Source: Bacillota bacterium | GTDB lineage: Bacteria; Bacillota; SHA-98; UBA4971 | Direction of reading: 5' to 3' | Length of the DNA: 49,155 bases | Assembly: GCA_040752635.1 (NCBI GenBank) | Contig: JBFMGS010000008.1 | Location: 4,700-53,854, forward strand | Shown: positions 11,981-31,525 of the stretch, piece after piece | How the letters are laid out: each line of letters begins with the position of its first letter | Position numbering within the stretch: the stretch's first letter is position 1 | Notes under the pieces: model-generated | What the model was told of the DNA's origin: nothing | Seen by the model: only the letters and a program-made list of their open reading frames with translations | The model's database searches: none | Translations under genes and position numbers: made by a program

Positions 11981-12020
11981 CCCGTCCCGTCCACCTGACT
12001 CGAGAACGAGGAGATGAGGC

Positions 12021-12308: not shown

Positions 12309-12363
12309 AGCCCCACCCCGATCACAAAGCGCATAAGGCGACAGTCTGTTTCCCGTGCATAGT

Positions 12364-12678
12364 CTATTTCCCGTGCACCGCAGCAGGACCCGCCCTATCG
12401 GATGGCTCCACGTGCACATGGTCCACTATTCCAACAATGGCTACATCGACGGGGGCCCCTGCCCTCGGGAGAGGAAAGGATGCTTCCCGGCCTTTCACAG
12501 CGTGTACAATCTCCCCCGCCCCCGCCCCGACGGTGTCAACCGCGATGAGCGGCTTGCCGCAAGGGGTGCCGTCGCGCTTCAGCGGCTCAACCACAAGTAG
12601 CTTCACGCCTTCGAGTTTTTCGTCTTTTCGCGTAGCGACTATTTTGCCCACTACCCTCGCGATAAACAGGGCGCTCAC
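12364..12678 (-). CDS. BMC-P (EutN/CcmL) #2
   Basis: FIARVVGKIVATRKDEKLEG...AVDTVGAGAGE...PVDVAIVGIVD. Confidence 0.92.
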   Translation of the reverse strand: MSALFIARVVGKIVATRKDEKLEGVKLLVVEPLKRDGTPCGKPLIAVDTVGAGAGEIVHAVKGREASFPLPRAGAPVDVAIVGIVDHVHVEPSDRAGPAAVHGK

Positions 12679-12724
12679 CCTCCGATGTCAAGCAAAAGCT
12701 CGCTCGCCACAGTCAAGGAGACGC

Positions 12725-13183
12725 TCACTCGCCTCTTGAGAGGAACCTTCTCTCGATCTCCATTATCTTGTTCACGCGGCGCAGGTGCCTTCCCCCGGCG
12801 AATTCCGTGGCAAGCCACACCTTCACGATCTCCCTGGCCACACCCTTGCCTACCACCCTGTCGCCCAGCGCCAGGACGTTTGCGTCGTTGTGCTCGCGGC
12901 TGTTCCTGGCCGTATATATGTCCTGGCAGGCGGCGCATCTCACCCCGGGCACCTTGTTTGCTGCCATAGCCGACCCGACCCCCGCGCCGTCCACAATGAT
13001 GCCGCGGTCGAAAAGGCCCCTCGCGACAGCTTCGGCCACAAGAAAGGCAAAGTCAGGATAGTCCACCGGGTCCCTGCTGTGCGTGCCGTAATCCACGCAC
13101 TCATAGCCGAGCTCTCCGAGGTAAGCCTTGATATCTTCCTTCAGTTCAAACCCACCATGGTCGCTGCCGATCACTACTTTCAT
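12725..13183 (-). CDS. rpiB: Ribose-5-phosphate isomerase B family protein
   Basis: GSDHGG, DYPD, AANKVPGVR, SREHNDANVLALG and GGRHLRRV motifs. Confidence 0.92.
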   Translation of the reverse strand: MKVVIGSDHGGFELKEDIKAYLGELGYECVDYGTHSRDPVDYPDFAFLVAEAVARGLFDRGIIVDGAGVGSAMAANKVPGVRCAACQDIYTARNSREHNDANVLALGDRVVGKGVAREIVKVWLATEFAGGRHLRRVNKIMEIERRFLSRGE

Positions 13184-14559: not shown

Positions 14560-14563
14560 TGCC

Positions 14564-14857
14564 TCAACCTTTCCGGTAGACTACTCTGCCTTCCATCTCG
14601 ATGGAGTCCACGATCCCCATAATGACCGCATCTACAGGCGTGTTTTGCGTCTTGGACGTCTGGCGCGCGGAGCTTCCGCTCACCACGAGCACTATCTCCC
14701 CTTCGCCCGCGCCCACTGTATCGATGGCTACGAGGGGCTTCCCATCGGGGGACTGGTCCACTAGAGAGATCGGCTGCACGACCTGGAGCTTTGAGCCCAC
14801 CAGCTTGTCATCCTTTCTGGTGCATACCACCGTGCCCACGACCTTGCAGGCAATCAA
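14564..14857 (-). CDS. BMC-P (EutN/CcmL) #3
   Basis: IACKVVGTVVCTRKD...AIDTVGAGEGE...GSSAR...PVDAVIMGIVD; TTG start with GGAGG RBS. Confidence 0.92.
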   Translation of the reverse strand: MIACKVVGTVVCTRKDDKLVGSKLQVVQPISLVDQSPDGKPLVAIDTVGAGEGEIVLVVSGSSARQTSKTQNTPVDAVIMGIVDSIEMEGRVVYRKG

Positions 14858-15182
14858 TGGGATCCCCCTCCTCCCTGAACGATACTGACCGGTAACGCCC
14901 TCCCCTCCCTGAGGTGAGCGGCATCATCACTTGCAACGATAATCTGTTCCTAAAGGTTGAACCGGTTCTTCAGGACACGAACCCTGACACCTTTACGCAT
15001 CGACACAGGATCCTCCCCGAAGCGCGGCAGCGGCACGGCTGGAGCCATGAGTTCCGCGGCCGCGCCGACCTTTCGTCGCCGACTTCTCGCCGGCGCCCTG
15101 GCACCAGGAGCGTCAGCTTTTTCCAACACTTAGCACCCTGCTCTTTCCGAGAAGACATTCGGGGAGGTCGCCCCTCGCGGTA

Positions 15183-15485
15183 TTACCCTTTCTCCTTCTT
15201 CATTTCTGGCAGGGTGATAGGCAGCTTGCCCTCGAGGTCGAAATGCGGCCTCGGGATCACATGCACCGATACGACTTCGCCGATCTTCGCGGCCGCCGCG
15301 GCCCCGGCGTCGCACGCAGACTTGCACGCCGCCACCTCGCCTCTCACCAGGACGGTGACGTAGCCGCCGCCGATCTTCTCCCAGCCCACGAGCCTCACGT
15401 TTGCTGCCTTGACCATAGCGTCCGCAGCCTCTATCATCGCAACGAGTCCCTTGGTCTCAATCATTCCCAGCGCTTCCATGGCCAT
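15183..15485 (-). CDS. BMC-H shell hexamer (PduA/EutM-like)
   Basis: [26 protein letters not shown]...RGEVAACK...HVIPRPH. Confidence 0.95.
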
Positions 15486-15910
15486 TTGGGTTCACCCCCT
15501 TTCGCTACCGCAACTGCGTAACCTAAACGGACTAATACCGTGGCTATCACACTAACCAGGACGTCGCGGTCCGGGTCCGGCCCGAGCCTTGCGACGGCGG
15601 CGCGCGCTATTCTCGCCATAAGCTCATCCAGCGGAATCCCCGTCTGAAGGCGCTCTCGGCAGGGCAAAGCGCCCTCCGTGCGAACTCCGGAATGCACAGT
15701 GGCCCGGCCCGGTGCCGCGGTCGCCGCGCCGTGGGTCGCCACGACCGACCCGGCGTTGTCCCGACCCTGCTTGTTTATCTCCACGAGGTCTATCCCGTGT
15801 TCCGCAGCGTAATCTCTGGCAGCGGGCGTCACGATCGCACCGCGCGGCACCACAATCTCACACCCTGCCGGAAAGTTCCTCAGTTCCGCCTCGGTGATAA
15901 CCGCTCGCAC
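15461..15910 (-). CDS. BMC-associated hypothetical protein with C-terminal encapsulation-like helices
   Basis: N-terminal VITEAELR...[24 protein letters not shown], a low-complexity linker, then [16 protein letters not shown] and [15 protein letters not shown]. Start GTG 15910 with GGAGGT RBS. Confidence 0.7.
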
Positions 15911-15982
15911 CGGAATACCTCCCGCCTCCTGCATGGCAAACCGTGGAGGATCGCCTTCACCGCCGCACCCGCATGACGGTGC

Positions 15983-16531
15983 TCACAGTAACATCCCAAC
16001 AAGCTCCTTTGCGGGCGAAGGAATCACCACGCGCCCGACGAGCAGGCCTTTCGCACCGGCGTCAGCGCTTCCCGCAGCGATGGCCGCCTGCACCGCACCC
16101 ACCTCTCCGGTGAGAGTCACAAAGCACTTGCCGCCCAGCCCGATGGCAAGGCGCAGTTCGATGGCGTCAACCGCCGCAGCCTTCAGGGCGGCGTCCGCGG
16201 CCACGATCGCTGACGCTACCGTGAAGGTCTCGATGACGCCAAGCGCCTTGACCTCTTTTACGTCGGACGTAGCTGTTATCGCCGGAAACACCCCCGGGTG
16301 CACGTTGGGTAGGATAAACTCGTCCACGACAGCGTCCGCCGCTACCGCCAGGCCTGCAGCAACCGAACTCTTCACGGCGCCTACATCCCCTGATACCAGG
16401 GTCGTATACTTCCCGGGGCAGGTGGGGCGCGCAAGAAGAAGCTCAACGTCAGCAGCCTTGACCATGGCGTCGGTTGCTTCTATTCCCCTCGTTATATTAG
16501 CGAACTCCACGAGACCTATCGCTATACCCAC
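15983..16531 (-). CDS. BMC-T single-layer trimer, PduT-like
   Basis: Two BMC domains; RPTCPGKY carries the pore Cys that binds an Fe-S cluster in PduT. Confidence 0.9.
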   Translation of the reverse strand: MGIAIGLVEFANITRGIEATDAMVKAADVELLLARPTCPGKYTTLVSGDVGAVKSSVAAGLAVAADAVVDEFILPNVHPGVFPAITATSDVKEVKALGVIETFTVASAIVAADAALKAAAVDAIELRLAIGLGGKCFVTLTGEVGAVQAAIAAGSADAGAKGLLVGRVVIPSPAKELVGMLL

Positions 16532-16753
16532 GAGGACTGTCCCCCTCGCACCAGTCTAGAACCGCAAGTCCCGAACTCGTATCTGGTCTCAGAGCCGGGC
16601 ACCGTCGTCCTGGCCGTTGAACACGAGGATGATTGCCCCTTGCGCCATTTCTTACCCGCCGCACCCGGAAAGCACACCGCCAGGCCCGGCCTGCATGTAC
16701 GCAGGCTTCAAAACCCACCGTGCCCCGTGCCGCTAGCTGCTACGAGCAGTCGC

Positions 16754-17560
16754 TCATCTACGGGTCCCGGTGCTCCCGACGACCTCCACCAGATCGCCGT
16801 TTCTCAGGAGCGCCGCGTTGGCTTCATCCGTATCCACGTGCATCTCAAGACGAAAGCTCTTGTCCACCCTCACAAGGACTCGCCCGAACACGAGTCCCCG
16901 ATCCCCCGGGACCTCCACCTCGACGCGGTCCTTATCCCGCAGCCCCCATCGGCTGGCTTCCTCAGGCGTCATGTGGATGTGGCGGACCGCAATGATCGCA
17001 CCCTCTTTCAGGCTGACCAGCCCGCGGGGCCCCACGATTGCTATGGGCGCGGACCCGTCGAGGTCCCCGGAATCCCGTACAGGGGGCGAAATGCCGAGCG
17101 TGTACGCATCGGTCCGGCTCACTTCGACCTGCGTCCGGGCGCGTAGGGGCCCGAGCACCCTCACCGAGGGTATGCTCCCCTTGGGGCCTACAAGGGACAC
17201 GACCTCGTTTGCCACAAACTGCCCGGGTTGTGACAGATCGCGCAGCCTGGACAGGCCCATGCGTGCGGCCTCCGCCCCGAACAGCGCGGCGAAATCCTTC
17301 TCGCAGAGGTGCACGTGGCGATTAGAGACCCCGACAGGTATCACGAGCCTCCCCGCCTGGTCCTTGCTGGCGCCTCGTCCGTCGCCCGCGCCTCGCCCAT
17401 CTCGCCCAGCAGCCGCGCTTCCATCAGGCGACAGCGCCGCCGGGCCGGGCGGATCAGGGATCATGACGCCATGTGGATCAGGAACCACGAGGCCGTTTGC
17501 TTCCAGGTCCCTTATGCATCTAGCAATTAGCTCATCGAGCGATCCAGTGCCCATACTCAC
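16754..17560 (-). CDS. pduL: PduL-type phosphotransacylase with N-terminal encapsulation peptide
   Basis: VGVSNRHVHL, VRVLGP...QVEVSRTD, RHIHM and EMHVDTDEANAA motifs; N-terminal SLDELIARCIRDLEA. Confidence 0.93.
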   Translation of the reverse strand: MSMGTGSLDELIARCIRDLEANGLVVPDPHGVMIPDPPGPAALSPDGSAAAGRDGRGAGDGRGASKDQAGRLVIPVGVSNRHVHLCEKDFAALFGAEAARMGLSRLRDLSQPGQFVANEVVSLVGPKGSIPSVRVLGPLRARTQVEVSRTDAYTLGISPPVRDSGDLDGSAPIAIVGPRGLVSLKEGAIIAVRHIHMTPEEASRWGLRDKDRVEVEVPGDRGLVFGRVLVRVDKSFRLEMHVDTDEANAALLRNGDLVEVVGSTGTRR

Positions 17561-17563
17561 CTG

Positions 17564-17842
17564 CTACGGCTTCGGCAGAATTCTGTCAACGTCCGTATGT
17601 GGCCTGGGGATCACATGCACGCTTACAAGCTCGCCAACTCTCGCAGCAGCAGCGGCGCCTGCATCAGTCGCGGCTTTCACCGCTCCGACATCGCCTCGGA
17701 CCATGACGGTCACATAACCGCCACCTATGTACTCCTTACCGATGAGCACCACGTTCGCTGCCTTGACCATCGCATCTGCGGCCTCGATAGCTCCCACAAG
17801 GCCTTTCGTCTCGACCATTCCCAGTGCGTCCTGAACCATCAA
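17564..17842 (-). CDS. BMC-H shell hexamer (EutM/PduA-like)
   Basis: [26 protein letters not shown]...[14 protein letters not shown]...HVIPRPH. Likely start is ATG 17839. Confidence 0.95.
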
Positions 17843-17960
17843 CCCCGCCCCCTAACGTTATCATCAACACCGTCATTCCCGACTGGTCGTGTCACTGCTG
17901 CCGGACTATACCCGCGCTGCCGGAGTATACCTGCTATGCTGCGCTTTATTGAGTTCTGCG

Positions 17961-19700
17961 CTACTTCGTGTCGTCGCCCCGGCTCAGCTCCGAAAGGAAC
18001 CTGTCCACAACAGCCCGTATCTCTTCGTCTGAAACGATCCTCGTTTGACTGCCTCGCAAGCCCGCGCTGCGGTGCTGAGCGGTCCCCGAGCCGCCTCTGC
18101 CGTCCCTCACCGTGGGTTGACCGGACACAAGCTCAGCGTGCTCCTGGGACTGCACAACGCCTTGCCTGCTCTTGGCTCCGGCTGCAGGCGGTATCGTGAC
18201 GGGCCGGTCAACGGCCGCCGCCGGGCCGACGATGGACGGCACAGGCCTGGGCCCGGAAGGTTGAATCGAGGATTGACTCGCCCTCCAGCTTGCTCCGACT
18301 CGGCGACCTTCGATCCCTTCTTCGTATAGCCCGCGGACATCCTCTGACGTCAGGTCATACGCTACACGCTTCACGTTCACAAGGTGCATCGGCCCCACGT
18401 TATCGGCGGTGATGCTGCCGCCCCAGGTGCCGCACCCGAGGGTCAGAGCGGGCTCGAGTCCCGTAGTCGCACCGATAGCGCCCTGGGAAGACGGGGTGTT
18501 GACGAGGATCCGGAACACGGGCTTCTTCAAGGCAAACTCCCTGATAACAGCCTCATTCCGCGAGTGGATGACAAGGCTGTGGCCGATGCCTCCGAATTTC
18601 AGGATCTCGATGCAGCGCTCGCAGGCTGCCTGCCAGTCAGGCTCGACGTAGAATGCCAGGATTGGGCTGAGCTTCTCCTTTGAAAGCGGGTACTGCGGTC
18701 CAACCCCGGCAAGACGCGCGATGAGGACCCGCGTGCCTTCCGGCACCGTGATTCCAGCCAGCCTGGCAATGGTCGCGGCGCTTCTGCCCACTATGGACGG
18801 GTTGATGTTCCCGGCAGGCTGCACCACGACCCTGGCGAGCGCGGCCGCCTCTGCATCGGTCAGGAAATACCCTCCTTGCGCTCTGACTTCTTCGACAACC
18901 TGGTTCTCAATGACTGACTCAGTCACTATCGCCTGTTCTGACGCACAGATCGTGCCGTTGTCAAAAGTTTTGCTTGCGAAGATGTCCGACACAGCCTTCT
19001 TTATGTCAGCCGTACGCTCTATGAACGCCGGGACGTTCCCCGGTCCGACCCCATAAGCAGGCTTGCCTGCGCTGTAGGCCGCCTTCACCATGGCCGACCC
19101 GCCCGTCGCCAAAATGAGCGCGGTCTCAGGATGGTGCATGAGCTCGTCGGTGGCCTGCTTTGTGGGGTGAATAATGCACTGGATAGCTCCCTTCGGAGCC
19201 CCCGCGGCGCACGCAGCGTCGGCCATGACCTGCGCGGCCTGGCAACTGCACTTGCACGCAGCCGGGTGAGGGCTAAATACAATTGGGTTGCGGGCCTTCA
19301 TGCTGATGAGGCTCTTGTATATCACCGTCGATGTCGGATTCGTAGACGGCACGAGCGCAATGATAACCCCCATCGGCTCTGCTATCTCTGCAATCCTGCG
19401 GGACGGGTCGCGCCGTATGATGCCCACGGTCTTGAGGTCGCGGATGGCTTCGTACACCCGCTCCGAGGCGAAGAGGTTCTTCGTGATCTTGTCCTCGTAT
19501 ACGCCAAAGCCGGTTTCGTCGGCGGCCATCTTTGCCAGCGCACGGGCGTTTGCCCGCCCGGCTTCGGCCATGCTCTTCACAATGCGGTCCACCTGCTCTT
19601 GCGTGAGCGAGGCCAGCTTCGCGCGAGAATCCGCAGCGCGCCTCATTGCTTCCCGAGCTTCTTGAATCGACATCAAGTCCGCATCAACAGCCATCCGCAT
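17961..19700 (-). CDS. CoA-acylating aldehyde dehydrogenase with C-terminal encapsulation peptide
   Basis: [39 protein letters not shown] and TLGCG motifs; a long linker, then [16 protein letters not shown]. Confidence 0.93.
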
Positions 19701-19734: not shown

Positions 19735-20703
19735 CTACCCCAGGCCCTGCACACCCAGAAGCTCTTTAGCCGTCGCCTCGTCGGTAACGAGCACGTTCAT
19801 GAACCGTCCCCGAAGCGCCCCTCGTATCCCGGCGACCTTGTGTGAGCCGCCCGCCACCGCGACGGAGAAATCTTTGCGTGCAAACTCCTGAAGGTCAAGC
19901 CCGATCGTCCTTTGATTCAGGGCCTCATCGCAAATGGATCCGTCCTCCGTGAAGAACCGCGAGCACAGGTCTCCAACCGCACCTCTCGTAACCAGCGCCT
20001 CCATCCCGTCGGGCGAGAAGTAACCGGCCTGGACCAGGATAGACGACTTGTCCGGGTGACCGATCGTGAACACCGCAACGTTCGCACTCTCGCCCATCTC
20101 GAGCACCCTGGATAAATTGCGGTCCTTCACGAGAGCTTCTTTGATTTGCCGGCGCTCGACAATGGCCGGCACGGAAAGGAAGTACGGCGTCGCTCCAAAC
20201 GCCTTTGCAAATAGGAGAGCTATTTCGTTTCCGTGGATTAACGCCTCGCCTTTTCCAGACAGCGTTCCTTCAAGCTGGACTACGCTCACGCCAGCCCGCC
20301 TCATCGGGCGTAGCGCCCGCGCGACCTGGAGCATCGTCGTGCCCCCGGTTACCCCGATCGTGTCGTTATCGCGCACGATCTCCCTGAGCAGCCTCGCAGC
20401 CGCCTGCCCCAGGTGCCATGCCAGAGGCCTGCGGCTTGATCGCGGCACCGGGCAAACCACCGCCCGCTTCAGTCCGAATCTCACCTGAAGCTCCCGCGCG
20501 AGCTCTGACTCTTCCCTAAATGGGTCCGACACGGTTACCTGTACGATACCAATCTCCCTTGCTCTCGTCAGCATCCTTGAAATGCGACTGCGCGACAGCC
20601 CGACTCTCTCCGCAATCTCCTGCTGGCCGAGGCCGTACTCGTAGTACATACGAGCAATTTCGACGAGAACCTCTGCATCTTTGTGTGCCATCTCTGTATC
20701 CAT
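19735..20703 (-). CDS. SorC/DeoR(Bacillus)-family sugar-phosphate-sensing regulator #1
   Basis: HTH ARMYYEYGLGQQEIAERVGLSRSRISRML plus sugar-binding domain (GGTTM, AVGDLCSRFF, RTIG, VAGG). Start ATG 20703 or 20691. Confidence 0.9.
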   Translation of the reverse strand: MDTEMAHKDAEVLVEIARMYYEYGLGQQEIAERVGLSRSRISRMLTRAREIGIVQVTVSDPFREESELARELQVRFGLKRAVVCPVPRSSRRPLAWHLGQAAARLLREIVRDNDTIGVTGGTTMLQVARALRPMRRAGVSVVQLEGTLSGKGEALIHGNEIALLFAKAFGATPYFLSVPAIVERRQIKEALVKDRNLSRVLEMGESANVAVFTIGHPDKSSILVQAGYFSPDGMEALVTRGAVGDLCSRFFTEDGSICDEALNQRTIGLDLQEFARKDFSVAVAGGSHKVAGIRGALRGRFMNVLVTDEATAKELLGVQGLG

Positions 20704-20845
20704 GCCCACTCTCCGACCTCGTGCTCGAGGGACTGCAGCGTACCCCCAGGAACTCGACGCCCTGCTATCCTCCGGGGGAACGCGCTCGCTATTGCATGCC
20801 GCTACGGTCAACTTGGGATCCCCAAGTTACCGGGGCCCGGGCTTT

Positions 20846-20995
20846 CCGCTTCAGTCCGAATCTCACCTGAATCTCCCCCGTGAGCTCTGACTCTTCCCTA
20901 AATGGGTCCGACACGGTTACCTGTACGATACCGGTCTCCCTTGCTCTCGTCAGCAACCTCGAAACGCGACTGCGCGACAGCCCGACTCTCTCCGC
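20846..20995 (-). pseudogene. 150-bp duplicate of the HTH region of regulator #1
   Basis: Aligned by hand to 20464-20613: 142/150 identical, no indels; lacks the gene's start and C-terminal domain. Confidence 0.85.
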
Positions 20996-21030
20996 CACTG
21001 GCTTTTCCAACAGTTTTGAGTGGTTCGGTG

Positions 21031-21064
21031 AGCACGTTTGTGCCTGCATAGGCACAAACGTGCT
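21031..21064. promoter_or_regulatory. Tandem palindromic operator (GCAC-N4-GTGC x2) upstream of the BMC operon
   Basis: GCACGTTTGTGC (21032-21043) and GCACAAACGTGC (21052-21063); together they form a perfect 15-bp inverted repeat. Confidence 0.6.
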
Positions 21065-21285
21065 TCCAACAAGTTATTCGCTGCCGGCACAAGAATTCCT
21101 GCAACTCCGGTAAAGACTTCTAGGATTTTCTCTTGCCAAACTCTGGACGTGTTACAAATAGTGGCCTTTTGCGGGCATTGCTCCACACGGCACCGCCAGG
21201 ACACTCAGGATATGTCCCAACACGGCCGTGCAAGAGTTGCAAGGCTTATCAGGAGATCAGGCGTGAATACCGTCCTACTTCGGTC

Positions 21286-22233
21286 TCATGTTAGACGCAT
21301 CATCTCAAGGGCTGCAAGTTCGTCTATGATGAGCGTATTCACATAACCTCCTCTCGCCGCGCCGACTATACCCCTCGCTTTGTGTGCTCCGGCAGCCACG
21401 CCGACAGTATGTTCCTTGTTGCGTAGATCCTCAAGACCGATGCCGATAGTCCGCGCGTCGAGTTCAGGGTCAACGATGTTCCCGTTAATGTCAAAGTACC
21501 TCGAACATATGTCTCCGACTGCCCCACGGGTGACGAGGCTCGCAACCTCCTGTGCCGTGACGTAGCCTGCCTCCACCAGGATAGAACGGGCATCAGGAAA
21601 ACCAACGCTAAAGACAGCTACGTCCGCCCGCTTAGCCAGGTCAATAGTAGACCGTATCCCGGGATCTGCAAGGAACTGCGCGCACAGATCTCTGCTGCGG
21701 GTGACCGCTGGAGCCGGGAGTGAGTACGACTCCGCGTTGTATGCCTGTGCAAACTTCATCAATATGGTGGCAGCGTTCTCGTGGGTGCGGCTCGACCTGG
21801 CATTCCCATTCAACTGCACTACTCTCACCCCGGACAGCCCATTGGGAATCAATCTTCCGGCCACTTCATACATAGTCGTCCCCCAGGAAACAGCTATCAC
21901 GGCCCTGTCGCGGATAATACCGTGAAGATACGAGGCTGCAACCTCGCTGACAGCCCGTTTTGCCTCCTGGTCGTCGTCCTTTGAGTTTGGGACGATTATG
22001 ACTTCCTTGAGTCCGAATATCTGCTTAAGGACCTCAGCCCTCTCTTTACAAGCTTCTTCAGGATCGAACACCTCTATCTTGACAAGGCCTTTTACCCGGG
22101 CTTGCGAGAGGCATCTCGAGACCACCGGCCTTGATACCCCCACCATCCGCGCGATTTCAGCCTGAGTAAGTCCATCTTCGTAATAGAGCCTGGCCACCCT
22201 CGAACAGAGTTCGTCACTGTCCACAATGCTCAT
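21286..22233 (-). CDS. SorC/DeoR(Bacillus)-family regulator #2
   Basis: VARLYYEDGLTQAEIARMVGVSRPVVSR, SWGTTM and AVGDICSRYF motifs. Confidence 0.92.
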   Translation of the reverse strand: MSIVDSDELCSRVARLYYEDGLTQAEIARMVGVSRPVVSRCLSQARVKGLVKIEVFDPEEACKERAEVLKQIFGLKEVIIVPNSKDDDQEAKRAVSEVAASYLHGIIRDRAVIAVSWGTTMYEVAGRLIPNGLSGVRVVQLNGNARSSRTHENAATILMKFAQAYNAESYSLPAPAVTRSRDLCAQFLADPGIRSTIDLAKRADVAVFSVGFPDARSILVEAGYVTAQEVASLVTRGAVGDICSRYFDINGNIVDPELDARTIGIGLEDLRNKEHTVGVAAGAHKARGIVGAARGGYVNTLIIDELAALEMMRLT

Positions 22234-23264
22234 AGCAGGGCCACACCACCCAGCGGCGTCTCAGAATCGGTCCTCGCGTTAACCCGAACCTGGTTCACAC
22301 TGGGCGCCTGGTGTCTTGCCAAATTCATCACGTCTCGGGCGGTGGTCTCGTCCGTTATCAGGACGTCAACATACCCGGCACGAATAGCGCCCAGTATACC
22401 GGCCACTTTCTGTCCACCGCCTGCAACCGTTATTTTGAGGGGAATCGTCGCAAGGTTCGAAAGGGATAGGCCAAGAGTGCGCTTATCAAGGGTAGGGTCG
22501 CAGATCCGCCCGAGGCTGTCAAAGAAACGAGAGCAGATGTCCCCCACCGCACCCCTGATCTGCAGATTCTTCATGTCCTCTGGTGTTAGATAGCCTGCCC
22601 CAACAAGAACGCATGCGGGGTCCACTACACCTACGGTAAAAACAGCAACGTCGGATCCTCTTGCGATCTCCAGGGCCTCTGCAATAGACGGATCCTTGCT
22701 GAACGCCTCGCTGAGAGCCGGGTCTTGAACAATAGCCGGGGCGGGAAACGAAAGCGCCTTAGCTCCCAGCTTGGTGGCAATCATCTGAAGCACCTGCGCC
22801 CCCAGGTACGAGGCTCCTCCTTGGCCAACGCAGCCATTTAGCTGCACCACGCAGACTCCTGGTATTCTAGCAGGTCGGAGCCTTAGGGCTACTTCGAATA
22901 GAGTGGTCCCCCAGGATATGCCTACCTTATGCCCCGGCCGAATCACTTCTGAGAGGTATGACGCGGCCGCTGCACCCAACCGCTCTTTGAGTCTGGCATC
23001 CCCACCACCGTCAATGGCAGGGACGAGGACCAGGTCTTTAAGGCCGAACGCCCGCTGCAGCTCGCTGCCTGCGCCGGAGCCCGCGGTGTTCCCGCTGGCA
23101 AATGATATCTTTACGATACCTCTGCGTTTTGCCTCCGCCAGCATTCGAGACACGGTCGATCTTGATGTCCCTAAAGATACAGCGATTTCCCGTTCAGACA
23201 GATTCTCCTCATAGTACAATCTTGCAGCGCGGACGAGGTCGCGAAGCCGCCCGAGGTCACTCAA
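22230..23264 (-). CDS. SorC/DeoR(Bacillus)-family regulator #3
   Basis: AARLYYEENLSEREIAVSLGTSRSTVSRML, SWGTTL and AVGDICSRFF motifs; stop overlaps the start of #2. Confidence 0.92.
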   Translation of the reverse strand: MSDLGRLRDLVRAARLYYEENLSEREIAVSLGTSRSTVSRMLAEAKRRGIVKISFASGNTAGSGAGSELQRAFGLKDLVLVPAIDGGGDARLKERLGAAAASYLSEVIRPGHKVGISWGTTLFEVALRLRPARIPGVCVVQLNGCVGQGGASYLGAQVLQMIATKLGAKALSFPAPAIVQDPALSEAFSKDPSIAEALEIARGSDVAVFTVGVVDPACVLVGAGYLTPEDMKNLQIRGAVGDICSRFFDSLGRICDPTLDKRTLGLSLSNLATIPLKITVAGGGQKVAGILGAIRAGYVDVLITDETTARDVMNLARHQAPSVNQVRVNARTDSETPLGGVALL

Positions 23265-23321
23265 CGTGCATACACCGCCAACCCTGGAAGTTTACACCTC
23301 ACAGAGCTCCGCCCCAATTGG

Positions 23322-24389
23322 TTAGCTCCGTGATGCAAGCCAGCGCTGTAAGAATACGCCGCCCAGGATGATTATTCCTTTCACGATTCGCTGCGGGAAA
23401 GGATGAACACCGACGAGATTGAGCACATTCGTAATGAGGGTGAGTATTAACACCCCGACTGCCGTGCCCGTCACGCCCCCGCGGCCCCCCGACAGGCTGG
23501 TGCCGCCGATGACTACCGCGGCAATTGCGTCCAATTCGAAGAGCTCCCCTTGCCTGGGTTCACCCTGGTCAATACGGCACGCCATGAGTATCCCCGCAAG
23601 CGCGGCAAACGCGCCGGCGATCACGTACACAAGGATCTTGTGACGGTCGCAGTTGATGCCCGATAACCTCGCAGAGTCTTCGTCCCCTCCCACCGCGTAG
23701 ACCCACCGTCCGAAAACGGTCCTCTTCAGAACAAACGCTGATACAAGAAGGCAGGCGATCCAGATAGCGACAGGGACCGGCAGACGGCCCAAGTTTCCAA
23801 ACCCAAACACCGAAAGGGACTCGCCCAGGCCGAATATGGTCCTCCCTCCGGCCAACATGTAGGCCACGCCTCTGATAGACACCATTGTTGCAAGGGTGGC
23901 AACGAATGCAGGGATCTGAGCCTTTGCGATCAAGAACCCGTTTACCAGGCCGACCACAGCGCCGGACGCAAGTGCCGTTATGACAATAAGCGGATCGGGC
24001 ATCGCCGGCGAAAGAGTGACGACGTAGCCTTTGTAACCACCCCAGTGGAACAGGTAGGCCAGCAAGACCCCGGATACCGCGACAGTAGCACCTACTGAAA
24101 GATCGATGCCTCCGGACAGGATCACGAAAGTCATACCGGTGGCCACAAGCCCGATGTAGCTTGCCTGCCGCAAAAGGTTCGCTATGTTAGTCCACGTCAG
24201 AAACGCCGGTGAGACCTGTGCGCTGACAATAACAAGGAGCAGGAATATCATGTACACACTGTTTCTGCCTAGCGCATCCCGCCAGGCGCCAACCCGTCTC
24301 ACCTTACGCTCAAGATGAAGCCTAGTGGCGACAGGTTGTCCATTTGCTCCCGTCACGCCCATCACGCGACCCTCACCCCCATCGCGCAA
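23322..24389 (-). CDS. Ribose-type (CUT2) ABC permease
   Basis: GGIDLSVG, IPAFVATL, AVGGDEDSARLSGI and ELDAIAAVVIGGTSLSGG motifs. The start is probably near 24363-24366. Confidence 0.92.
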   Translation of the reverse strand: MRDGGEGRVMGVTGANGQPVATRLHLERKVRRVGAWRDALGRNSVYMIFLLLVIVSAQVSPAFLTWTNIANLLRQASYIGLVATGMTFVILSGGIDLSVGATVAVSGVLLAYLFHWGGYKGYVVTLSPAMPDPLIVITALASGAVVGLVNGFLIAKAQIPAFVATLATMVSIRGVAYMLAGGRTIFGLGESLSVFGFGNLGRLPVPVAIWIACLLVSAFVLKRTVFGRWVYAVGGDEDSARLSGINCDRHKILVYVIAGAFAALAGILMACRIDQGEPRQGELFELDAIAAVVIGGTSLSGGRGGVTGTAVGVLILTLITNVLNLVGVHPFPQRIVKGIIILGGVFLQRWLASRS

Positions 24390-25876
24390 GCAAGAACATC
24401 CTCTTGTGTGGTTTCTTTCGGCACGAACTCTCCAGCAATGCTGCCCTTTCGCATAACGATGAGCCTGTCGCTTATCGCCATTATCTCGGAAAGCTCCGAC
24501 GATATCACAAGCAACGCCTTGCCCTGACCTGCTATGGCTCTGATGAGCGCGTGGATCTCCGTTTTAGCACCTACGTCCACGCCGCGCGTCGGCTCATCCA
24601 GGATCAGTACCCTGCACGCCGTTGCAAGCCATTTAGCTAACACTACTTTCTGCTGGTTCCCGCCGCTCAGGTTTTCTACGAGCGTCGAGAGAGAAGCCAC
24701 CTTGATCCTCAATTCATCCACGGACTTCTTTGCTGTCGCGTGGAGAGACCGTGCGTTTACCACTCCGAACTTCGAAAGTTGCTCCCAAATCGTCAGCGTC
24801 GAGTTGTCGGCGACGCTCATGCCAAGCACCAGGCCATGCCTCTTTCTATCTTCGGGAACCAGCCCGATTCCAAGTCTCATTGCATGTCGCGGCGAGGAAG
24901 GTTTCACTTCCTTCCCGTCCAGGATGATTGTCCCCGAATCCGACCTATCCGCTCCGACCAGTGCGTGCGCCAGCTCCGTTCTGCCGGCCCCGACAAGTCC
25001 GAACACGCCTACGATCTCACCTGCTAGTATGTGGAGGCTCACATCAGTCAGGACTCCCCGGCGGGAAAGGTTTCTGACCTCCAGAACAGGTGCCCCGGCG
25101 CTGTGCTCTACTCTACCGTTAGATTCCACCACCTCTCTCCCGGTCATCATGCGGACCAAGTCCGATTGCGTAACATCCGAAACCCTGAACGTTCCGACCA
25201 CCTCCCCGTCTCTAAGGACGGTGACGCGGTCGCCTATCTCGAAGATTTCCTCAAGACGGTGAGAAATGTATATAATTGCCACGCCGTCCCGCTGAAGTCC
25301 TTTCATTATATTGAACAGCTTACCCAGCTCTTCCACTGTCAACACGGCTGACGGCTCATCCAGCACTATCACCTTCGCCCTGAAGGACAGGGCTTTGGCG
25401 ATTGCAATGATCTGTTGCTGCGCAACAGTGAGTTGCTCCACAGGCACAGCCACGTCAACCTCGACACCGAAAGGCTCTATCAGCCTTTCGGCTTCCTGGT
25501 GTTGCCGGCGGGCATTCACGGTTCCAAGAGGAGTCCGGATCTCCCGGCCGAGGAATATGTTCTCCGTGGCTGAAAGGCAGGGATTCAACGCCAGTTCCTG
25601 GTACAGTACTGATATGCCCGCCTTCAGCGCCGCATGGGGATTCGGAAAGATCATCTTTTCCCCATCCAGCAAGATATCGCCTCCGTCCATCCTGTAAGCC
25701 CCGCCGAGGATCTTCATGAGAGTTGACTTGCCTGCGCCGTTCTGTCCCACCAGGCAATGAATCTCGCCCCGTCGCACAGAGAGGGAGACGTCGTGTAGAG
25801 CCCTCACGCCGGGAAACGATTTCGAGACGTGCTCCATGCGCAGTACAAACTCATCTGCCACTATAACCACCACCAC
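24362..25876 (-). CDS. CUT2 ABC ATPase (RbsA/MglA-like, two domains)
   Basis: GQNGAGKST, DEPSA, YISHRLEEI, LSGGNQQK and DEPTRGVDVGAK motifs. Confidence 0.95.
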   Translation of the reverse strand: MVVVIVADEFVLRMEHVSKSFPGVRALHDVSLSVRRGEIHCLVGQNGAGKSTLMKILGGAYRMDGGDILLDGEKMIFPNPHAALKAGISVLYQELALNPCLSATENIFLGREIRTPLGTVNARRQHQEAERLIEPFGVEVDVAVPVEQLTVAQQQIIAIAKALSFRAKVIVLDEPSAVLTVEELGKLFNIMKGLQRDGVAIIYISHRLEEIFEIGDRVTVLRDGEVVGTFRVSDVTQSDLVRMMTGREVVESNGRVEHSAGAPVLEVRNLSRRGVLTDVSLHILAGEIVGVFGLVGAGRTELAHALVGADRSDSGTIILDGKEVKPSSPRHAMRLGIGLVPEDRKRHGLVLGMSVADNSTLTIWEQLSKFGVVNARSLHATAKKSVDELRIKVASLSTLVENLSGGNQQKVVLAKWLATACRVLILDEPTRGVDVGAKTEIHALIRAIAGQGKALLVISSELSEIMAISDRLIVMRKGSIAGEFVPKETTQEDVLACAMGVRVA

Positions 25877-25888
25877 ATAGCGCCATGC

Positions 25889-26938
25889 TTACCGCCTTCG
25901 CGTGGCCCCTTGCATGAGCACCGCCGCGATAATGATCAGGCCTTTGGCAACTTGCTGTGGGTATGGCGGTACTTCCATGAGGTTGAGGATGTTCGAGATA
26001 AGCCCAAGCACCAGCGCGCCTATGACCGTCCCCGCAATGCTGCCCCGCCCGCCGCTCAAAGAGGTACCACCGATGATCGCTGCTGCAATGGCGTCAGCTT
26101 CCATACCGGCACCCTCGCGCGGCTCGGCCGCGCCCATCCGACCGAGCATTAGCACACCCGCAAGAGTTGCCAGCACCCCGCTTATCGTGTATACGATGAT
26201 TCTGACCCGGTCGCTATCTATCCCAGAAAGCCACGAGGCGCGTTCATTGCCTCCAACAGCATATACTTTCTTCCCGAACACGGAGCTCCTCAATACAAAC
26301 ATGCACGCAACTGATACCAGCGCCCAAATCATAACGGGTACCGGCAACACGCCAACCCGACCGGCACCCAACCATTCGACTTCGTGAGTAATACCCGGAA
26401 TCGGAAACCCTGCGGTATAGGTAAAGGCGAGACCTCGAATCGCGACCATTGCGCCAAGCGTGACGACGAACGGAGGCATGCCGGCTTTGGTGACCAGGAC
26501 CCCATTTATAAACCCGAGCAGTGCCCCGACTCCGAGTGTGAGAAGCAGGGTGGGGAGGAAAGGCATGATAGGTGCGAGTTCTCTAGATTGCTCAAAACCG
26601 GCTGTCAACTCAGGCATGAACCTGAAAAAGAAACCATGCTGGAAGGTGGCAAGCAGAACTCCTGCGAAGGCGAAAGTTGCACCGACTGACAGGTCGATCC
26701 CTCCGGTGAGGATCACAAAAGTCATCCCCAGGCTCACAAGGCCCACAAAGCTCGACCTGAGCAGCAGATTCATGATGTTCTCCACGGTGAAGAACCGGGG
26801 CGATATGAGCCCGGAAATGACAACGAGCGCCCCGAATACGATATAAAGCTTGTATGCGGTCCAAAACGCGGCGAGCCGCCCGCCTCGCCAGCCTTTGTAT
26901 TCCAAACCGGAACTCCCGGACACTTCCCTAGACAACAT
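25889..26938 (-). CDS. CUT2 ABC permease
   Basis: GGIDLSVG, MPPFVVTLG, AVGGNERASWLSGI and DAIAAAIIGGTSLSGG motifs. Confidence 0.92.
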   Translation of the reverse strand: MLSREVSGSSGLEYKGWRGGRLAAFWTAYKLYIVFGALVVISGLISPRFFTVENIMNLLLRSSFVGLVSLGMTFVILTGGIDLSVGATFAFAGVLLATFQHGFFFRFMPELTAGFEQSRELAPIMPFLPTLLLTLGVGALLGFINGVLVTKAGMPPFVVTLGAMVAIRGLAFTYTAGFPIPGITHEVEWLGAGRVGVLPVPVMIWALVSVACMFVLRSSVFGKKVYAVGGNERASWLSGIDSDRVRIIVYTISGVLATLAGVLMLGRMGAAEPREGAGMEADAIAAAIIGGTSLSGGRGSIAGTVIGALVLGLISNILNLMEVPPYPQQVAKGLIIIAAVLMQGATRRR

Positions 26939-27009
26939 GATTCCAGCCCCGTTTCCTTAACTGCCGCCTTCTAAGAACAGCCGTCCTCTAAGGTTCGCAC
27001 GCCCCGCCA

Positions 27010-27053
27010 CCCGGGTCCGGGCTCTCTCGTCACCGAGCTCGCCCGGACCCGGG
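27010..27053. promoter_or_regulatory. GC-rich stem-loop just 3' of the solute-binding gene
   Basis: Perfect 13-bp stem CCCGGGTCCGGGC/GCCCGGACCCGGG with no U-tract; position typical of an mRNA-stabilising or partial-termination element in ABC operons. Confidence 0.55.
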
Positions 27054-27114
27054 AATGCAGGCACCGTCTTACCTGTCCCTGCACGGCGGGGTCACGCAAC
27101 TCCCCTGGGCTTTC

Positions 27115-28074
27115 CTAGAAGATACTGTCAGGGTTGTAGTACTTCTCAACATTCTCCTTGGTCACCAGGATGGTACCGGTGATCACCCGCTCCGGGTGGG
27201 CCTTGCCATCGAGGTGATCAACCATCATTTCTACCGCCTTAGTAGCTATCTCATAAGAGTTGTTGATTACCGTTCCGATGAACTGGCCGCCTTTCATTAT
27301 CTCTTCGTATGCCTGCCGCTGGCCGTCAATGCCCACCACGAAGACGTCCTTTCTCCCTGCAGCGCGGAGAGTCTTGAGCGCCCCAAGGCCCATGGCGTCA
27401 TTGTGCGTGTAGACGAGCTTCACGTCCGGGTGGGCGGCGAGGGCTTCCTCCATCCTTGCCATGCCCTCAGCGGTGTTGTAATGTGCAATGTACGGTCCTA
27501 CGATCTTGATACCGGGGTATTTCTTTGAAAGCACGGCGTGCATCCCGCCGCCCCGGCCTTTGCCCGCGGAATCGCCGGGATCTCCCGCGATCTCAACCAC
27601 TTTGCCTTTGCCGTTCAATGTCTTGCCGATGAGTTCGCCGGCGAGCTCCCCGGCTTTCCACTGATCGATTCCCACATATCCCACGTGACCCTCTGCCAAT
27701 TCTCTGTCTGCGCAGATAATGGGAATCTTAGCCGCCAGCGCCTTTTTTACAGCAGAGTCGAGCGCGGTCGGAGTCACAGGGTTCACAATTATCCCATCGA
27801 CTTTCTTTGTGATGAGGTCCTCCATGTCAGCGATCTGTCGCGCTACGATGTTGTCTGCGTTCAACCATATGAGCTTGACGCCAAGACGTTCGGCGGTGTC
27901 AACTGCCCCTTGATAAAGCGCCAGGTAGTAGGGGCAGTTCATTACAACCTGTGAAAACCCGATCGTATATCGATACTGTTTCTGCGCGCCAACTCCCACG
28001 CTGAGCGACACGAGCACGAGCATTACCATAATCCCAGCGAGCACGTGCTTTCCAAAGGACAATCTCCTCAGCAT
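27115..28074 (-). CDS. RbsB-like sugar/polyol-binding protein
   Basis: Signal peptide without lipobox; GIIVNP, IPIICADR, RGGG, HNDAMGLGA and VGIDG motifs. Confidence 0.92.
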   Translation of the reverse strand: MLRRLSFGKHVLAGIMVMLVLVSLSVGVGAQKQYRYTIGFSQVVMNCPYYLALYQGAVDTAERLGVKLIWLNADNIVARQIADMEDLITKKVDGIIVNPVTPTALDSAVKKALAAKIPIICADRELAEGHVGYVGIDQWKAGELAGELIGKTLNGKGKVVEIAGDPGDSAGKGRGGGMHAVLSKKYPGIKIVGPYIAHYNTAEGMARMEEALAAHPDVKLVYTHNDAMGLGALKTLRAAGRKDVFVVGIDGQRQAYEEIMKGGQFIGTVINNSYEIATKAVEMMVDHLDGKAHPERVITGTILVTKENVEKYYNPDSIF

Positions 28075-28250
28075 CTTTGATAACCCCCCCTAAAGAAGAT
28101 CTCTGAAATAGATAGTTGTGCTACAACTGACGCCAGTTCCATCCGCTTGAGTTTCACCGCCATGCGTCATCTGTCCTCCGTCGTCATTTCACCTCCTCGA
28201 GAATGGGACCACCTTGCCCTGGACGCCATGCGAGAAGGCCTCCGTGAGCG

Positions 28251-29813
28251 TCATGCGTCTCGCTCGCCCAGGACCCTGGCGGTCATGGAGTGGAGTATGC
28301 CGCGATTTGCCTCGTAGGTGCGGAGGTACTTTTCGTAGTAGAAGTCATACGTATCCGACGCATCAGGGTTTGGCTCGATCACGTCCTCTACTTCGACCAT
28401 CGAAGATGCCGCCAGGTCAAGTGAGCTATATCTACCCGCGCCGAAAGCTCCGACAATAGCAGAACCGAGCACGGAGGCCTCCCTCACTTTGGTAAGCACG
28501 ATGGGCACTTTGCACACATCTGCATAGATTTGCAGCCACAATTTGCTCTTGGTTGCCCCGCCGCACGCCCTCATCTCTTCAACGGTCACGCCCGCCTGGC
28601 GAAAGGTATCTAAAATCTGTCTGGTCCCAAAAGCACACGCCTCAAAGATCGCGCGGATCAGGTGCCCGCGTCCGTGTTTGAGAGAAAGCCCGGCGACAAC
28701 GCCGCGGGATAGCGGGTCTCTGAGGGGCGTCCTGTTCCCCTGCCAGTGATCGAGGACAACCAGCCCTTCACAGCCAGGCGGCACTTCTGCAGCCTCGCGG
28801 TTCATGATTTCGTACAGATCCCCCGTTGATGCCGTTGGTGCCTGCGAACCTGCTGTACCCAACATGAAGGTGTCACGAAACCAACGCACTATGGAACCGG
28901 AGGAGATCTGTCCGCCCTCAATGAGCCAGAGTTCTTCGAGCATCGCACTCGGGTACGGGCCCCATATCCCGGGATGGTATACCGCCTCCTGTGAATTGGT
29001 CAGATGGACGTTGGACGTTCCGAGGATGACCGAAAGCCTTCCCGGTCGCAAGCCGTCCAGCCCGATCATGCCTATGTGTGCATCTATTCCGCCTTCCGCA
29101 ACGGGAATACCGGACTTGAGACCTAACTCTCCGGCGGCACGCGAAGTCAATTCGCCCGCAAGAGCACCGATAGGGAGGACACTCTTCGGCCACCTGTCGC
29201 GTAGTTCCAGCAGCCCGGCCGCTCCGAGGAACGTTTCGTCAAAGCCGCCGTCAGGCAGGGAGTAATGCCACTTGCAGGTGGCGTTGCACCGCGAGGCAGT
29301 GTACTCCCCTGTAAGCATGAAAATCAGCCAGTCGGTCTGCTCCATCACACGGGCCGCGCTGTCCCATATCCTCGGCTCGTTTTCTTTGACCCACAGCGCC
29401 TTGGCCATCATCCATTCGGGTGACTCCTGTCCGCCCACGTATTTGAGTCGAGGGTGCCTGGTGGCTGTGATCGCCGCGGCCTGACCCGGGTTACGGGAGT
29501 CCATCCACAGGATTGCGCGGCGAAGGGGTCTTCCGTCTTCGTCGGTGAATACAACTGTAGAGGAGGTGCCATCTACCGAGATCCCGGCGATCTGTGCAGG
29601 TTTCACGCCGGAGACCTGCAGGCAGCGTCTCACGGCCGCTAACGCCGCCCTCCACCAATCGTCCGCATCCTGTTCGGCCCACCCGGGCCTATCCTGATAT
29701 ACGGGGTACTCCTCGCTAACGAGAGCTGCAGGGTTACCCTTGTCGTCGAAAAGCCCCGCCCTCAAGCTTTGGGTGCCCGCGTCTATCCCCAGGTAGTAGT
29801 GCTTTCGAGCCAT
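28251..29813 (-). CDS. FGGY-family carbohydrate kinase, ribulokinase-like
   Basis: LGIDAGTQSLR, AILWMDSR, SPEW, TCKWHY, DHWQGNRTP and GGATKS motifs. Confidence 0.9.
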   Translation of the reverse strand: MARKHYYLGIDAGTQSLRAGLFDDKGNPAALVSEEYPVYQDRPGWAEQDADDWWRAALAAVRRCLQVSGVKPAQIAGISVDGTSSTVVFTDEDGRPLRRAILWMDSRNPGQAAAITATRHPRLKYVGGQESPEWMMAKALWVKENEPRIWDSAARVMEQTDWLIFMLTGEYTASRCNATCKWHYSLPDGGFDETFLGAAGLLELRDRWPKSVLPIGALAGELTSRAAGELGLKSGIPVAEGGIDAHIGMIGLDGLRPGRLSVILGTSNVHLTNSQEAVYHPGIWGPYPSAMLEELWLIEGGQISSGSIVRWFRDTFMLGTAGSQAPTASTGDLYEIMNREAAEVPPGCEGLVVLDHWQGNRTPLRDPLSRGVVAGLSLKHGRGHLIRAIFEACAFGTRQILDTFRQAGVTVEEMRACGGATKSKLWLQIYADVCKVPIVLTKVREASVLGSAIVGAFGAGRYSSLDLAASSMVEVEDVIEPNPDASDTYDFYYEKYLRTYEANRGILHSMTARVLGERDA

Positions 29814-30012
29814 AAACGTCCAGCGGCCTCCATAACGACTATCAACGACTTGTTCTCGTCCGGTCCGTCAACGACTGTTCTCATCCAGTCCTAAAGACCT
29901 AGACGACCCGCCTCTACCTGATGTTCCAAAGCGCAGGAGTGCAGGCCCTTGACCCCGGGGCTCAGGAAGCCCGGCGCAAGACAAGCCCTGGCCCCGCTCT
30001 CCTCTCGCAGTG

Positions 30013-31080
30013 CTACGGCTGTTGTGGCAGGAACAACACCTTCCCATGCACCATGTGCCGGTTCCATATCTCGTCAAACGCCTGCGGGACTTGTGAAATA
30101 GGTAATCGATGGGTTATGAACGGTTCAGCCACCAGTTTACCCTGGCCCATGAAGTGGAGGGTCGTCCTCCAATCGTCCTGGTGCGGCACCGTCACATCGC
30201 CGGAGTTCCACGAACCTATCACAGAAATCTCGCGCCGCATCACCCTGTCCACAGCAACCTCTGAAAGATCAAGACCCGCATGGGATATACCGCAGAAGAC
30301 CACCGACCCCAGTTTCGAAGCAATAAGGCAGCCCTGGCGTTGGGTCTGTGGAACTCCCGCGGTTTCGATCACGCGGTTGATCCCCACGCCGCCGGTCATC
30401 TCATCGACAACTTCGATGGGATCCGCTACCCGGGCATTGATACATGCATCGGCTCCCAGACGTCGCGCGATCTCTAGCTTCTCGTCGTAGATGTCTACTG
30501 CCACTACCATGACGGCGCCAGCAATTCTTGCCCACTGAACAGTGAAAAGCCCAATCGGACCCGTTCCTAAAACCGCGACAGTATCCCCAACGGTGACCCC
30601 CGCCTTCCTGATAGAATGAAGGGCGACAGCGGCAGGGTCAGTCGTAGCAGCAGTCTCAAAATCGAGACCCTCGGGAAGCCCGAGAACATTCTCAGCTCGG
30701 GTCTTGACATATTCCGCAAATGCCCCGTCCGTCCTGGAGCCGATATAGTCGTAGTGATCGCAAAGGTTATACTGTCCGCTCTTACAATAAACGCATGAGC
30801 CACATGGGATCAGCGGAATGGCGGTGACGCGCTCCCCGGGTCTTACAGTTTTGACGTCGGGACCTATATCTACAACCTCTCCCGCAAACTCGTGCCCGAT
30901 AGTGATAGGGTACGAATAGGCTCCGGTAGCCATAGCCCGGGACGGATCTGAACCGCATATCCCTGCCGCCGCTACCTTAATGAGCACTTCGTTCTCCCCG
31001 ACTTCCGGGACCGGGACGCGTTCGATACGAATATCACCAGGAGCATACAACCGCGCTGCCAGCATGGTCTTTGGGATCAA
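30013..31080 (-). CDS. Zn-dependent polyol(-phosphate) dehydrogenase (GatD/sorbitol DH-like)
   Basis: GICGSD, GHEFAG, structural-Zn CGSCVYC...C and GTGPIG motifs. Start TTG 31080 with AAGGAGG RBS (ORF track over-extends to 31392). Confidence 0.9.
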   Translation of the reverse strand: MIPKTMLAARLYAPGDIRIERVPVPEVGENEVLIKVAAAGICGSDPSRAMATGAYSYPITIGHEFAGEVVDIGPDVKTVRPGERVTAIPLIPCGSCVYCKSGQYNLCDHYDYIGSRTDGAFAEYVKTRAENVLGLPEGLDFETAATTDPAAVALHSIRKAGVTVGDTVAVLGTGPIGLFTVQWARIAGAVMVVAVDIYDEKLEIARRLGADACINARVADPIEVVDEMTGGVGINRVIETAGVPQTQRQGCLIASKLGSVVFCGISHAGLDLSEVAVDRVMRREISVIGSWNSGDVTVPHQDDWRTTLHFMGQGKLVAEPFITHRLPISQVPQAFDEIWNRHMVHGKVLFLPQQP

Positions 31081-31193
31081 CGTTTCGCCCTCCTTGCTCG
31101 CACGGCGTCTACACGGATGTTCATCACAGGGGCGGCGCACGAGCAATTCGCGGTCACTGTCGGGCCGCGACCAAAAGCCATCCCTTGCGTGTA

Positions 31194-31226
31194 GAACAAA
31201 TGTGCAATACCTATGGACATATGTGC
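31194..31226. promoter_or_regulatory. Tandem palindromic operator next to a TATACT -10
   Basis: GAACAAATGTGC (31194-31205) and GGACATATGTGC (31215-31226), immediately downstream on the minus strand of a TATACT hexamer. Confidence 0.6.
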
Positions 31227-31525
31227 TGAGTATACTATTCTCTGCCGTAGGGGAAAATCCTTCTTCAGTGTCACAAGAATTCTCATGGTAGATCTTGGTG
31301 GCGGACCTACCGATTCTGGGCAGATTGACAGGCGTACTGACGCGGGCCTGGTAGCAGTGGGGTCCTATCTGCGGCTGTCTTGTTCGCTGCACGGCAGCCC
31401 CTGGAAGCCTGACAGGCCAAGGTCGTTGCGGCTTCGCAGTTGCGCGGGTTTCTCATAAGTCTCTTCCGTCCCATCCAGGGCTGTGGAGGTAAGGGTCGGT
31501 GAATCCCGGGGAGAAACAAGAATCC

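Follow-up and report, generated by a model that had tools for sequence, protein, structure and literature searches.

Whether two neighboring operons that carry the same tandem palindromes answer to one switch or to two is the question raised by a stretch of 49,155 nt from a Bacillota bacterium (GCA_040752635.1, contig JBFMGS010000008.1, positions 4,700 to 53,854 of the forward strand; assembly size, 2.58 Mb), here called the window. It encodes an SPU-type microcompartment operon whose first gene specifies a DeoR-like repressor, SorC1, and, upstream of it, an operon for a polyol-type dehydrogenase (ADH1), a kinase, an ABC importer, and two further DeoR-like regulators, SorC3 and SorC2, in that order. 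A pair of 12-bp palindromes precedes the microcompartment operon (site 1), and a similar pair precedes the polyol operon (site 2). The original prediction held that a single SorC-family regulator acts on both and that the palindromes are direct evidence for a link between the two modules. Our comparison with related genomes points instead to two paralogous repressor-operator pairs with possible cross-talk, rather than to one shared switch, a reading to which we would assign a probability of about 0.6.

The palindromes themselves lie where they had been predicted. On the forward strand, the 12-mers are GCACGTTTGTGC at 21032 and GCACAAACGTGC at 21052 for site 1 and GAACAAATGTGC at 31194 and GGACATATGTGC at 31215 for site 2, with start-to-start spacings of 20 and 21 bp, respectively. 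Because all of the relevant genes of both operons are on the minus strand, the pairs are to be read in that direction, in which site 1 becomes GCACGTTTGTGC-N8-GCACAAACGTGC (21063 to 21032) and site 2 becomes GCACATATGTCC-N9-GCACATTTGTTC (31226 to 31194) (Table 1). Taken singly, GCAC-N4-GTGC is unremarkable in the window, which holds 2 exact occurrences (1.16 expected) and 36 with one mismatch (28 expected); the distinguishing feature is the pairing of the 12-mers, not any single 12-mer. When pairs at 20 to 21 bp were scored across the assembly with a paired-site matrix trained solely on the orthologous sites in other genomes, site 2 ranked first (33.8 bits) and site 1 second (31.0 bits), and the third match reached 15.6 bits. 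The remaining tandem matches were weak, those that could be placed lay in coding sequence, and none was accepted as a further genomic member of the motif; the third-best tandem by mismatches (C10:33819), for example, falls within an open reading frame (ORF) for a DksA/TraR-type zinc-finger protein that is conserved across genomes. Nor, apart from two close relatives, was any G[CA]AC-N4-GT[GT]C pair at 20 to 21 bp found near distant SorC homologues from Clostridium, Bacillus, Listeria, and Chloroflexota (78 loci, about 1.3 to 1.37 Mb), and the motif is therefore specific to the lineage of the window.

Within that lineage, the sites are conserved in a telling manner. SorC1 orthologues (77 to 86% identical) occur in 8 of the 18 genomes of the window's family that were compared, and in all eight, site 1 stands directly upstream of the SorC1-AldDH-microcompartment operon with an unvarying period of 20 bp. 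Its four-base arms are GCAC/GTGC in 31 of 32 cases, the lone mismatch being in genome G009, while the 8-bp spacer and the central N4 (GTTT, AGAT, GCAT, ATAT, GTGT, AAAT, and others) vary. ADH1 orthologues (80 to 87% identical) are found in five family genomes, and site 2 lies upstream of the ADH-kinase-ABC-SorC3-SorC2 operon in 5/5 genomes with ADH1, SorC2, and SorC3, always with a period of 21 bp. The promoter-proximal dyad of site 2 is GCACAnnTGTCC in three of these genomes and GAACAnATGCTC in the other two, the second dyad has the form tGCACATaTGT[T/G]C, and the 9-bp spacers are mutually unrelated. Arms that stay fixed while central bases and spacers drift form the footprint pattern expected of protein contact. 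In family genomes without these regulators, such as the 98% complete G019, the tandem site was not seen, and across the 18 genomes, its presence or absence tracks that of the SorC genes. Two peculiarities of individual genomes may be recorded here. The SorC1 orthologue of G003 (G003:C5:237995-238939, locus L123) has one in-frame TAG, with site 1 intact, and may be a pseudogene or reflect a sequencing error in that genome. In G007, the region upstream of the ADH1 promoter (locus L081, approximately 1020 to 1120) contains short tandem repeats composed of CCATG/CATGA and CCCTTCTATG units, which the window lacks.

These alignments also bear on the promoters. The hexamer TATACT next to site 2, originally taken for a −10 element, is part of the palindrome AGTATACT (31230 to 31237) and is not conserved in relatives, and no sigma-70-like promoter was matched on the minus strand at either site. 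The elements that are conserved at both sites are instead AGGA(T/A)TT-N14-GAATA, that is, AGGA-N17-GAAT, a spacing kept in all five site 2 promoters and in 6/8 site 1 promoters (the exceptions are G013, whose −10 is GAAC, and G003, which has an 18-nt spacer). SigH promoters in Sporomusa, Bacillus subtilis, and Clostridioides difficile have a −35 AGGA and a −10 GAAT separated by 17 to 18 nt (PMC12456013). A sigH orthologue is present in the window's genome (G000:C31:13386-13979; TIGR02859, 373 bits against a curated cutoff of 294.8), and a genome-wide spacing scan for AGGAWW...GAATW returned 51 occurrences at N17, 15 at N18, and approximately 4 elsewhere, compared with 0 to 7 for a reversed-pattern control. 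Both promoters thus look to be of the SigH type. The operators start 9 to 11 nt past GAATA at both sites and should span roughly +1 to +35, counted from the predicted transcription start. The terminator scan detected no intrinsic terminator at site 1 or in the interval (21064 to 21285) that separates the end of SorC2 from the microcompartment promoter. Transcription of the polyol operon may read through into sorC1 and the microcompartment genes, and site 1 would then act as a roadblock as well.

Other occurrences of the SigH-type pattern were seen in the same genome (AGGAWW-N15-GAATW at C5:36242, on C11, at C17:18292, and at C58:6105, for example), and the class also precedes many sugar ABC transporter operons and genes for GntR/RpiR regulators, a hibernation factor, EF-P, and Asp23-like and MreB-like proteins. 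This distribution suggests a broad metabolic role of SigH in this lineage.

The regulators are of a family whose operators have been studied structurally. Among solved structures, SorC1, SorC2, and SorC3 are most similar to B. subtilis DeoR (8r7y; E values of 2e-73, 1e-62, and 6e-56) and match CggR only distantly (E about 1e-10 to 1e-12). Their scores against the NCBIfam DeoR model NF053881 (340, 310, and 268 bits) are all below its equivalog cutoff of 420, so that the three are members of the SorC/DeoR subfamily and not DeoR equivalogs. DeoR and CggR are tetramers (dimers of dimers) that bind two half-operators; DeoR contacts its half-site, TTGAACA, via R34 and R39, and the operator of CggR consists of two palindromes with a 20-bp period downstream of the transcription start (PMC11229326). 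SorC1 to SorC3, their orthologues, and a fourth paralogue all keep equivalents of R34 and R39 in the SR..(I/V)SR helix, whereas the two residues past the first SR of this recognition helix differ consistently among the paralogues (SR in SorC1, P/S-V in SorC2, and S-T/S in SorC3). A covalent-lysine effector site, conceivable by comparison with DeoR, found no confirmation in the searched text of that paper and plays no part in our reading. Sites 1 and 2 have the features of a bipartite SorC-family operator, in that spaced dyads lie at the promoter of a SorC-linked operon and their arms are conserved with drift elsewhere. By analogy with CggR and DeoR, the proposal that they are sites for SorC-family tetramers would seem to hold up well, given conserved dyads two turns apart at SorC-linked promoters.

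The fourth DeoR-like paralogue (G000:C28:25658-26641; locus L135, 659 to 1642) heads another ribose-type ABC operon. Its promoter is sigma-A-like (TTGACC-N17-TACCAT) and is followed by a half-site, GCACGTATGTTC. The orthologue in G011 has a tandem, GCACATATGTGC-N8-GGACGCAGGTGT, directly upstream.

What was computed here comprises the sequences, the degree to which they are conserved and unique in the genome, the class of promoter, and the family of the regulators; from these we infer binding, the assignment of regulators to sites, the transcription start, the mechanism of repression, and the effector. Each pair would serve as the two-part operator of a tetrameric DeoR-type (SorC-family) repressor, in which each 12-bp dyad (G[C/A]ACA-nn-TGT[G/T]C) is occupied by a dimer of DNA-binding domains and the two dimers, two helical turns apart, are linked through their sugar-binding domains. 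The bound tetramer, lying over approximately +1 to +35, would block initiation or promoter escape and would be released by a phosphorylated sugar made in the pathway. SorC1 would act through site 1 to autoregulate the SorC1-AldDH-microcompartment operon, and the polyol operon would be controlled through site 2 by one or both of the regulators that its last genes encode, SorC2 and SorC3. Since the half-sites are nearly alike, some cross-binding is plausible, and the polyol "feeder" and microcompartment "core" operons could in this way be coordinated yet separable.

One argument for two pairs comes from genomes that have only one of them. G013 and G009 possess SorC1, site 1, and the microcompartment genes without SorC2, SorC3, or ADH1, and G017 probably does likewise, although its contig is just 3.3 kb long; SorC1 is therefore the only regulator that site 1 requires. 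Where the polyol operon is missing, site 1 is preceded by unrelated genes (HutP, a methyltransferase, or no Pfam match), so no alternative feeder operon is evident there. Site 2, in turn, always occurs together with SorC1, SorC2, and SorC3, and the pattern expected of a single regulon, both sites accompanied by the same regulator only, was not found. Site 2 also differs from site 1 in its 21-bp period and in the arm variants GTCC and GTTC, which are held in three genomes with fully changed spacers. Retention of these deviations despite spacer divergence is more suggestive of a separate specificity under selection than of decay. The recognition-helix residues that differ consistently among SorC1, SorC2, and SorC3 likewise speak against a single shared repressor.

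Both operators could nonetheless be occupied by one and the same SorC-family repressor, with SorC1 as the simplest candidate, and both operons would then be switched by the same inducer. This part of the original prediction has evidence in its favor: the two sites share the core half-site, the two-turn architecture, the promoter class, and the operator position, and they are each other's best cross-prediction genome-wide (with a matrix built from site 1 orthologues, site 2 takes second place, at 26.8 versus 18.4 bits, and a matrix built from site 2 orthologues recovers site 1 at 21.2 versus 17.4 bits). In all four genomes that have both operons and allow their arrangement to be judged (that of the window, G011, G005, and G003), the polyol operon immediately precedes SorC1 and the microcompartment genes. 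No recognizable terminator lies between the two operons. Yet under one repressor the two regulators of the polyol operon itself, conserved in 5/5 genomes, would have no assigned target, and neither the retained peculiarities of site 2 nor the occurrence of site 1, SorC1, and the microcompartment genes without the polyol genes would be expected. The resemblance of the motifs is moreover partly a family trait, because a comparable half-site accompanies the fourth paralogue at an unrelated ABC operon. The motif does not, then, provide the direct evidence for linked modules that had been claimed for it, and synteny is the better evidence for a functional link. We consider control of both operons by one repressor unlikely, though credible. 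Several points do weigh against the explanation preferred here: the strong cross-prediction is just as compatible with a single shared regulator; no genome has site 2 without SorC1, which could thus bind there too; the eight and five genomes are related to each other, and their counts are not independent events; the SigH consensus was taken from other Bacillota; and the transcription start that sets the operator position is a predicted one.

Two further explanations set aside SorC-family control of one or both sites. In the window, site 1 has 15-nt inverted repeats that match perfectly around a 4-nt loop, folds strongly (−26.4 kcal/mol versus −6.7 for shuffles), and lies approximately 220 bp past the SorC2 stop, as might befit a terminator-like or stabilizing RNA or DNA hairpin between the operons whose likeness to site 2 is incidental. 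However, such pairing is automatic for any two identical dyads, and its perfection is not conserved: the central N4 is mismatched in 4/7 relatives, where the stability falls to between −10 and −18 kcal/mol, while the four-base arms stay invariant, which indicates protein contact rather than a stem. No T-run follows site 1, in keeping with the empty terminator scan, and site 2 is unfolded (−5 to −8 kcal/mol) yet has the same half-sites in the same position after the promoter. On the strength of the N4 mismatches, the lack of a terminator, and the unfolded site 2, we rejected the hairpin as a selected feature and regard it as a very improbable explanation of site 1. It is similarly hard to credit that the sites are bound by a regulator of another family or owe their conservation to something other than the SorC paralogues. 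The SorC assignment does rest on colocalization and analogy, but the sites follow the SorC genes across the family, the half-site resembles the sequence contacted in the solved DeoR complex, and the only other regulator found nearby, a LacI-type gene (40845 to 41969), is a member of a different ABC operon.

Two repressor-operator pairs could also be arranged in series. In such a two-tier cascade of paralogues, a mixed SorC2/SorC3 oligomer would recognize the half-sites of site 2, whose conserved asymmetry sets GCACA against either GGACA or GAACA, and would open the polyol operon; a sugar phosphate produced by that operon would then free SorC1 from the symmetric site 1 and turn on the microcompartment. 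SigH, as a transition-state sigma factor, would gate both steps, so that the organelle would be built only on entering nutrient limitation. We offer this scheme as speculation and think it improbable as it stands.

Table 1. Control elements and genes of the two operons (positions in the window)
Feature	Position	Strand	Remarks
Site 1 promoter-proximal half-operator, GCACGTTTGTGC	21052..21063	-	Exact GCAC-N4-GTGC; starts 12 nt past GAAT
Site 1 second half-operator, GCACAAACGTGC	21032..21043	-	20 bp from first half
Site 2 promoter-proximal half-operator, GCACATATGTCC	31215..31226	-	Starts 10 nt past GAAT
Site 2 second half-operator, GCACATTTGTTC	31194..31205	-	21 bp from first; best-conserved half-site, tGCACATaTGTkC
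Predicted −35 AGGA, SorC1/microcompartment promoter (SigH type)	21097..21100	-	Conserved AGGA-N17-GAAT
Predicted −10 GAAT, SorC1/microcompartment promoter	21076..21079	-	Conserved; motif per PMC12456013
Predicted −35 AGGA, polyol operon promoter	31258..31261	-	N17 spacing in 5/5 genomes
Predicted −10 GAAT, polyol operon promoter	31237..31240	-	Conserved in orthologous promoters
SPU-type microcompartment genes: AldDH, BMC-H, PduL, BMC-T, BMC-H, EutN, RnfC-like, RpiB, EutN, DeoC-type aldolase	10289..19700	-	Pfam; type per PMC8217296
SorC1, DeoR-like repressor, first gene of microcompartment operon	19735..20691	-	Pfam Sugar-bind and helix-turn-helix (HTH)
150-nt copy of SorC1 codons ~29-78, including recognition helix, in leader between site 1 and sorC1	20846..20995	-	
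SorC2, DeoR-like regulator	21286..22233	-	Pfam, structure, and NCBIfam matches
SorC3, DeoR-like regulator	22230..23264	-	Pfam, structure, and NCBIfam matches
FGGY pentulose-type kinase and ribose-type ABC importer (binding protein, permease, ATPase, permease)	23322..29813	-	Pfam, NCBIfam
ADH1, Zn-dependent polyol-type dehydrogenase, first gene of polyol operon	30013..31065	-	ATG at 31065; ribosome-binding site AAGGAGG

The genes around the sites call for a few comments of their own. The nearest NCBIfam models are those of ribulokinase and pentulose kinases for the kinase and of polyol-phosphate and polyol dehydrogenases for ADH1, all with scores below the equivalog cutoffs; "polyol module" is therefore a reasonable name that leaves the substrate unspecified. 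SorC3 and SorC2 overlap by 4 nt (ATGA, 22230 to 22233), and the pair is present jointly in 5/5 genomes. Translationally coupled paralogous repressors closing one operon are an unusual arrangement, and the two could form a mixed oligomer.

The leader of sorC1 contains a partial copy of the gene (Table 1). It is a direct repeat, 95% identical to 20464 to 20613 (79% identity to SorC1 residues 23 to 75 by tblastn), and sits in an 88-codon ORF (20789 to 21055) that lacks helix 1. A tblastn search did not find this copy in the other seven SorC1 genomes. Either a real partial duplication (or a fragment of a pseudogene) or an assembly artifact of the metagenome bin could account for it.

Few bacterial organelles are as widespread as SPU microcompartments. 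For one SPU lineage, the locus described here supplies an operator and a promoter that can be tested, and the DeoR-like sensor hints at an inducer resembling deoxyribose phosphate. The adjacent polyol operon can be seen as an optional add-on with near-identical control elements. For experimenters, the analysis yields defined 35-bp probes and three candidate proteins.

In gene content, the locus matches SPU loci already described, which likewise combine a DeoC-type aldolase and RpiB, the defining enzymes of the type, with AldDH, PduL, and shell proteins (PMC8217296; PMC11585597). In that same literature, no cis-regulatory element, operator, inducer logic, or SorC/DeoR regulator is described, and the characterized SPU6 locus has a GntR-like regulator; a SigH-type promoter ahead of a microcompartment operon is, as far as these two reports go, also not described. 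The context of the operators is modestly new. The promoters otherwise resemble the SigH (Spo0H) promoters of Bacillota in their AGGA and GAAT elements, their 17- to 18-nt spacer, and the presence of a sigH orthologue in the genome. Compared with B. subtilis SigH, use of the factor appears to be wider here, with some 50 to 70 such promoters, many of them at sugar-transport operons.

As for the operators, the CggR/gapA system (8r3g) offers one parallel: two palindromic half-operators with a 20-bp period, located downstream of the transcription start (here a predicted one), are bound by a dimer of dimers that is released by a sugar phosphate and whose gene lies inside the controlled operon, features seen or proposed here as well. 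CggR differs in its longer winged-helix domain, in its dyad (GAC-N7-GTC), and in the position of its operator (+32 to +77). The DeoR/dra-nupC-pdp system (8r7y, 7bhy) shares with ours the short N-terminal HTH with its base-contacting arginines, a bipartite operator with half-sites about two turns apart (tetramer bound in DeoR), similar half-site cores (TTGAACA for DeoR and aG[C/A]ACA here), and a DeoC aldolase in the regulated pathway. The DeoR operator, however, extends from −60 to −21 of a housekeeping-type promoter and has an irregular right half (PMC11229326), whereas both halves are clean dyads here and lie just past the −10 of a SigH-type promoter. In sum, the analogy gives good support to the view that these operators belong to the bipartite DeoR/CggR kind already known, and it leaves the accepted working of SorC-family repressors unchanged.

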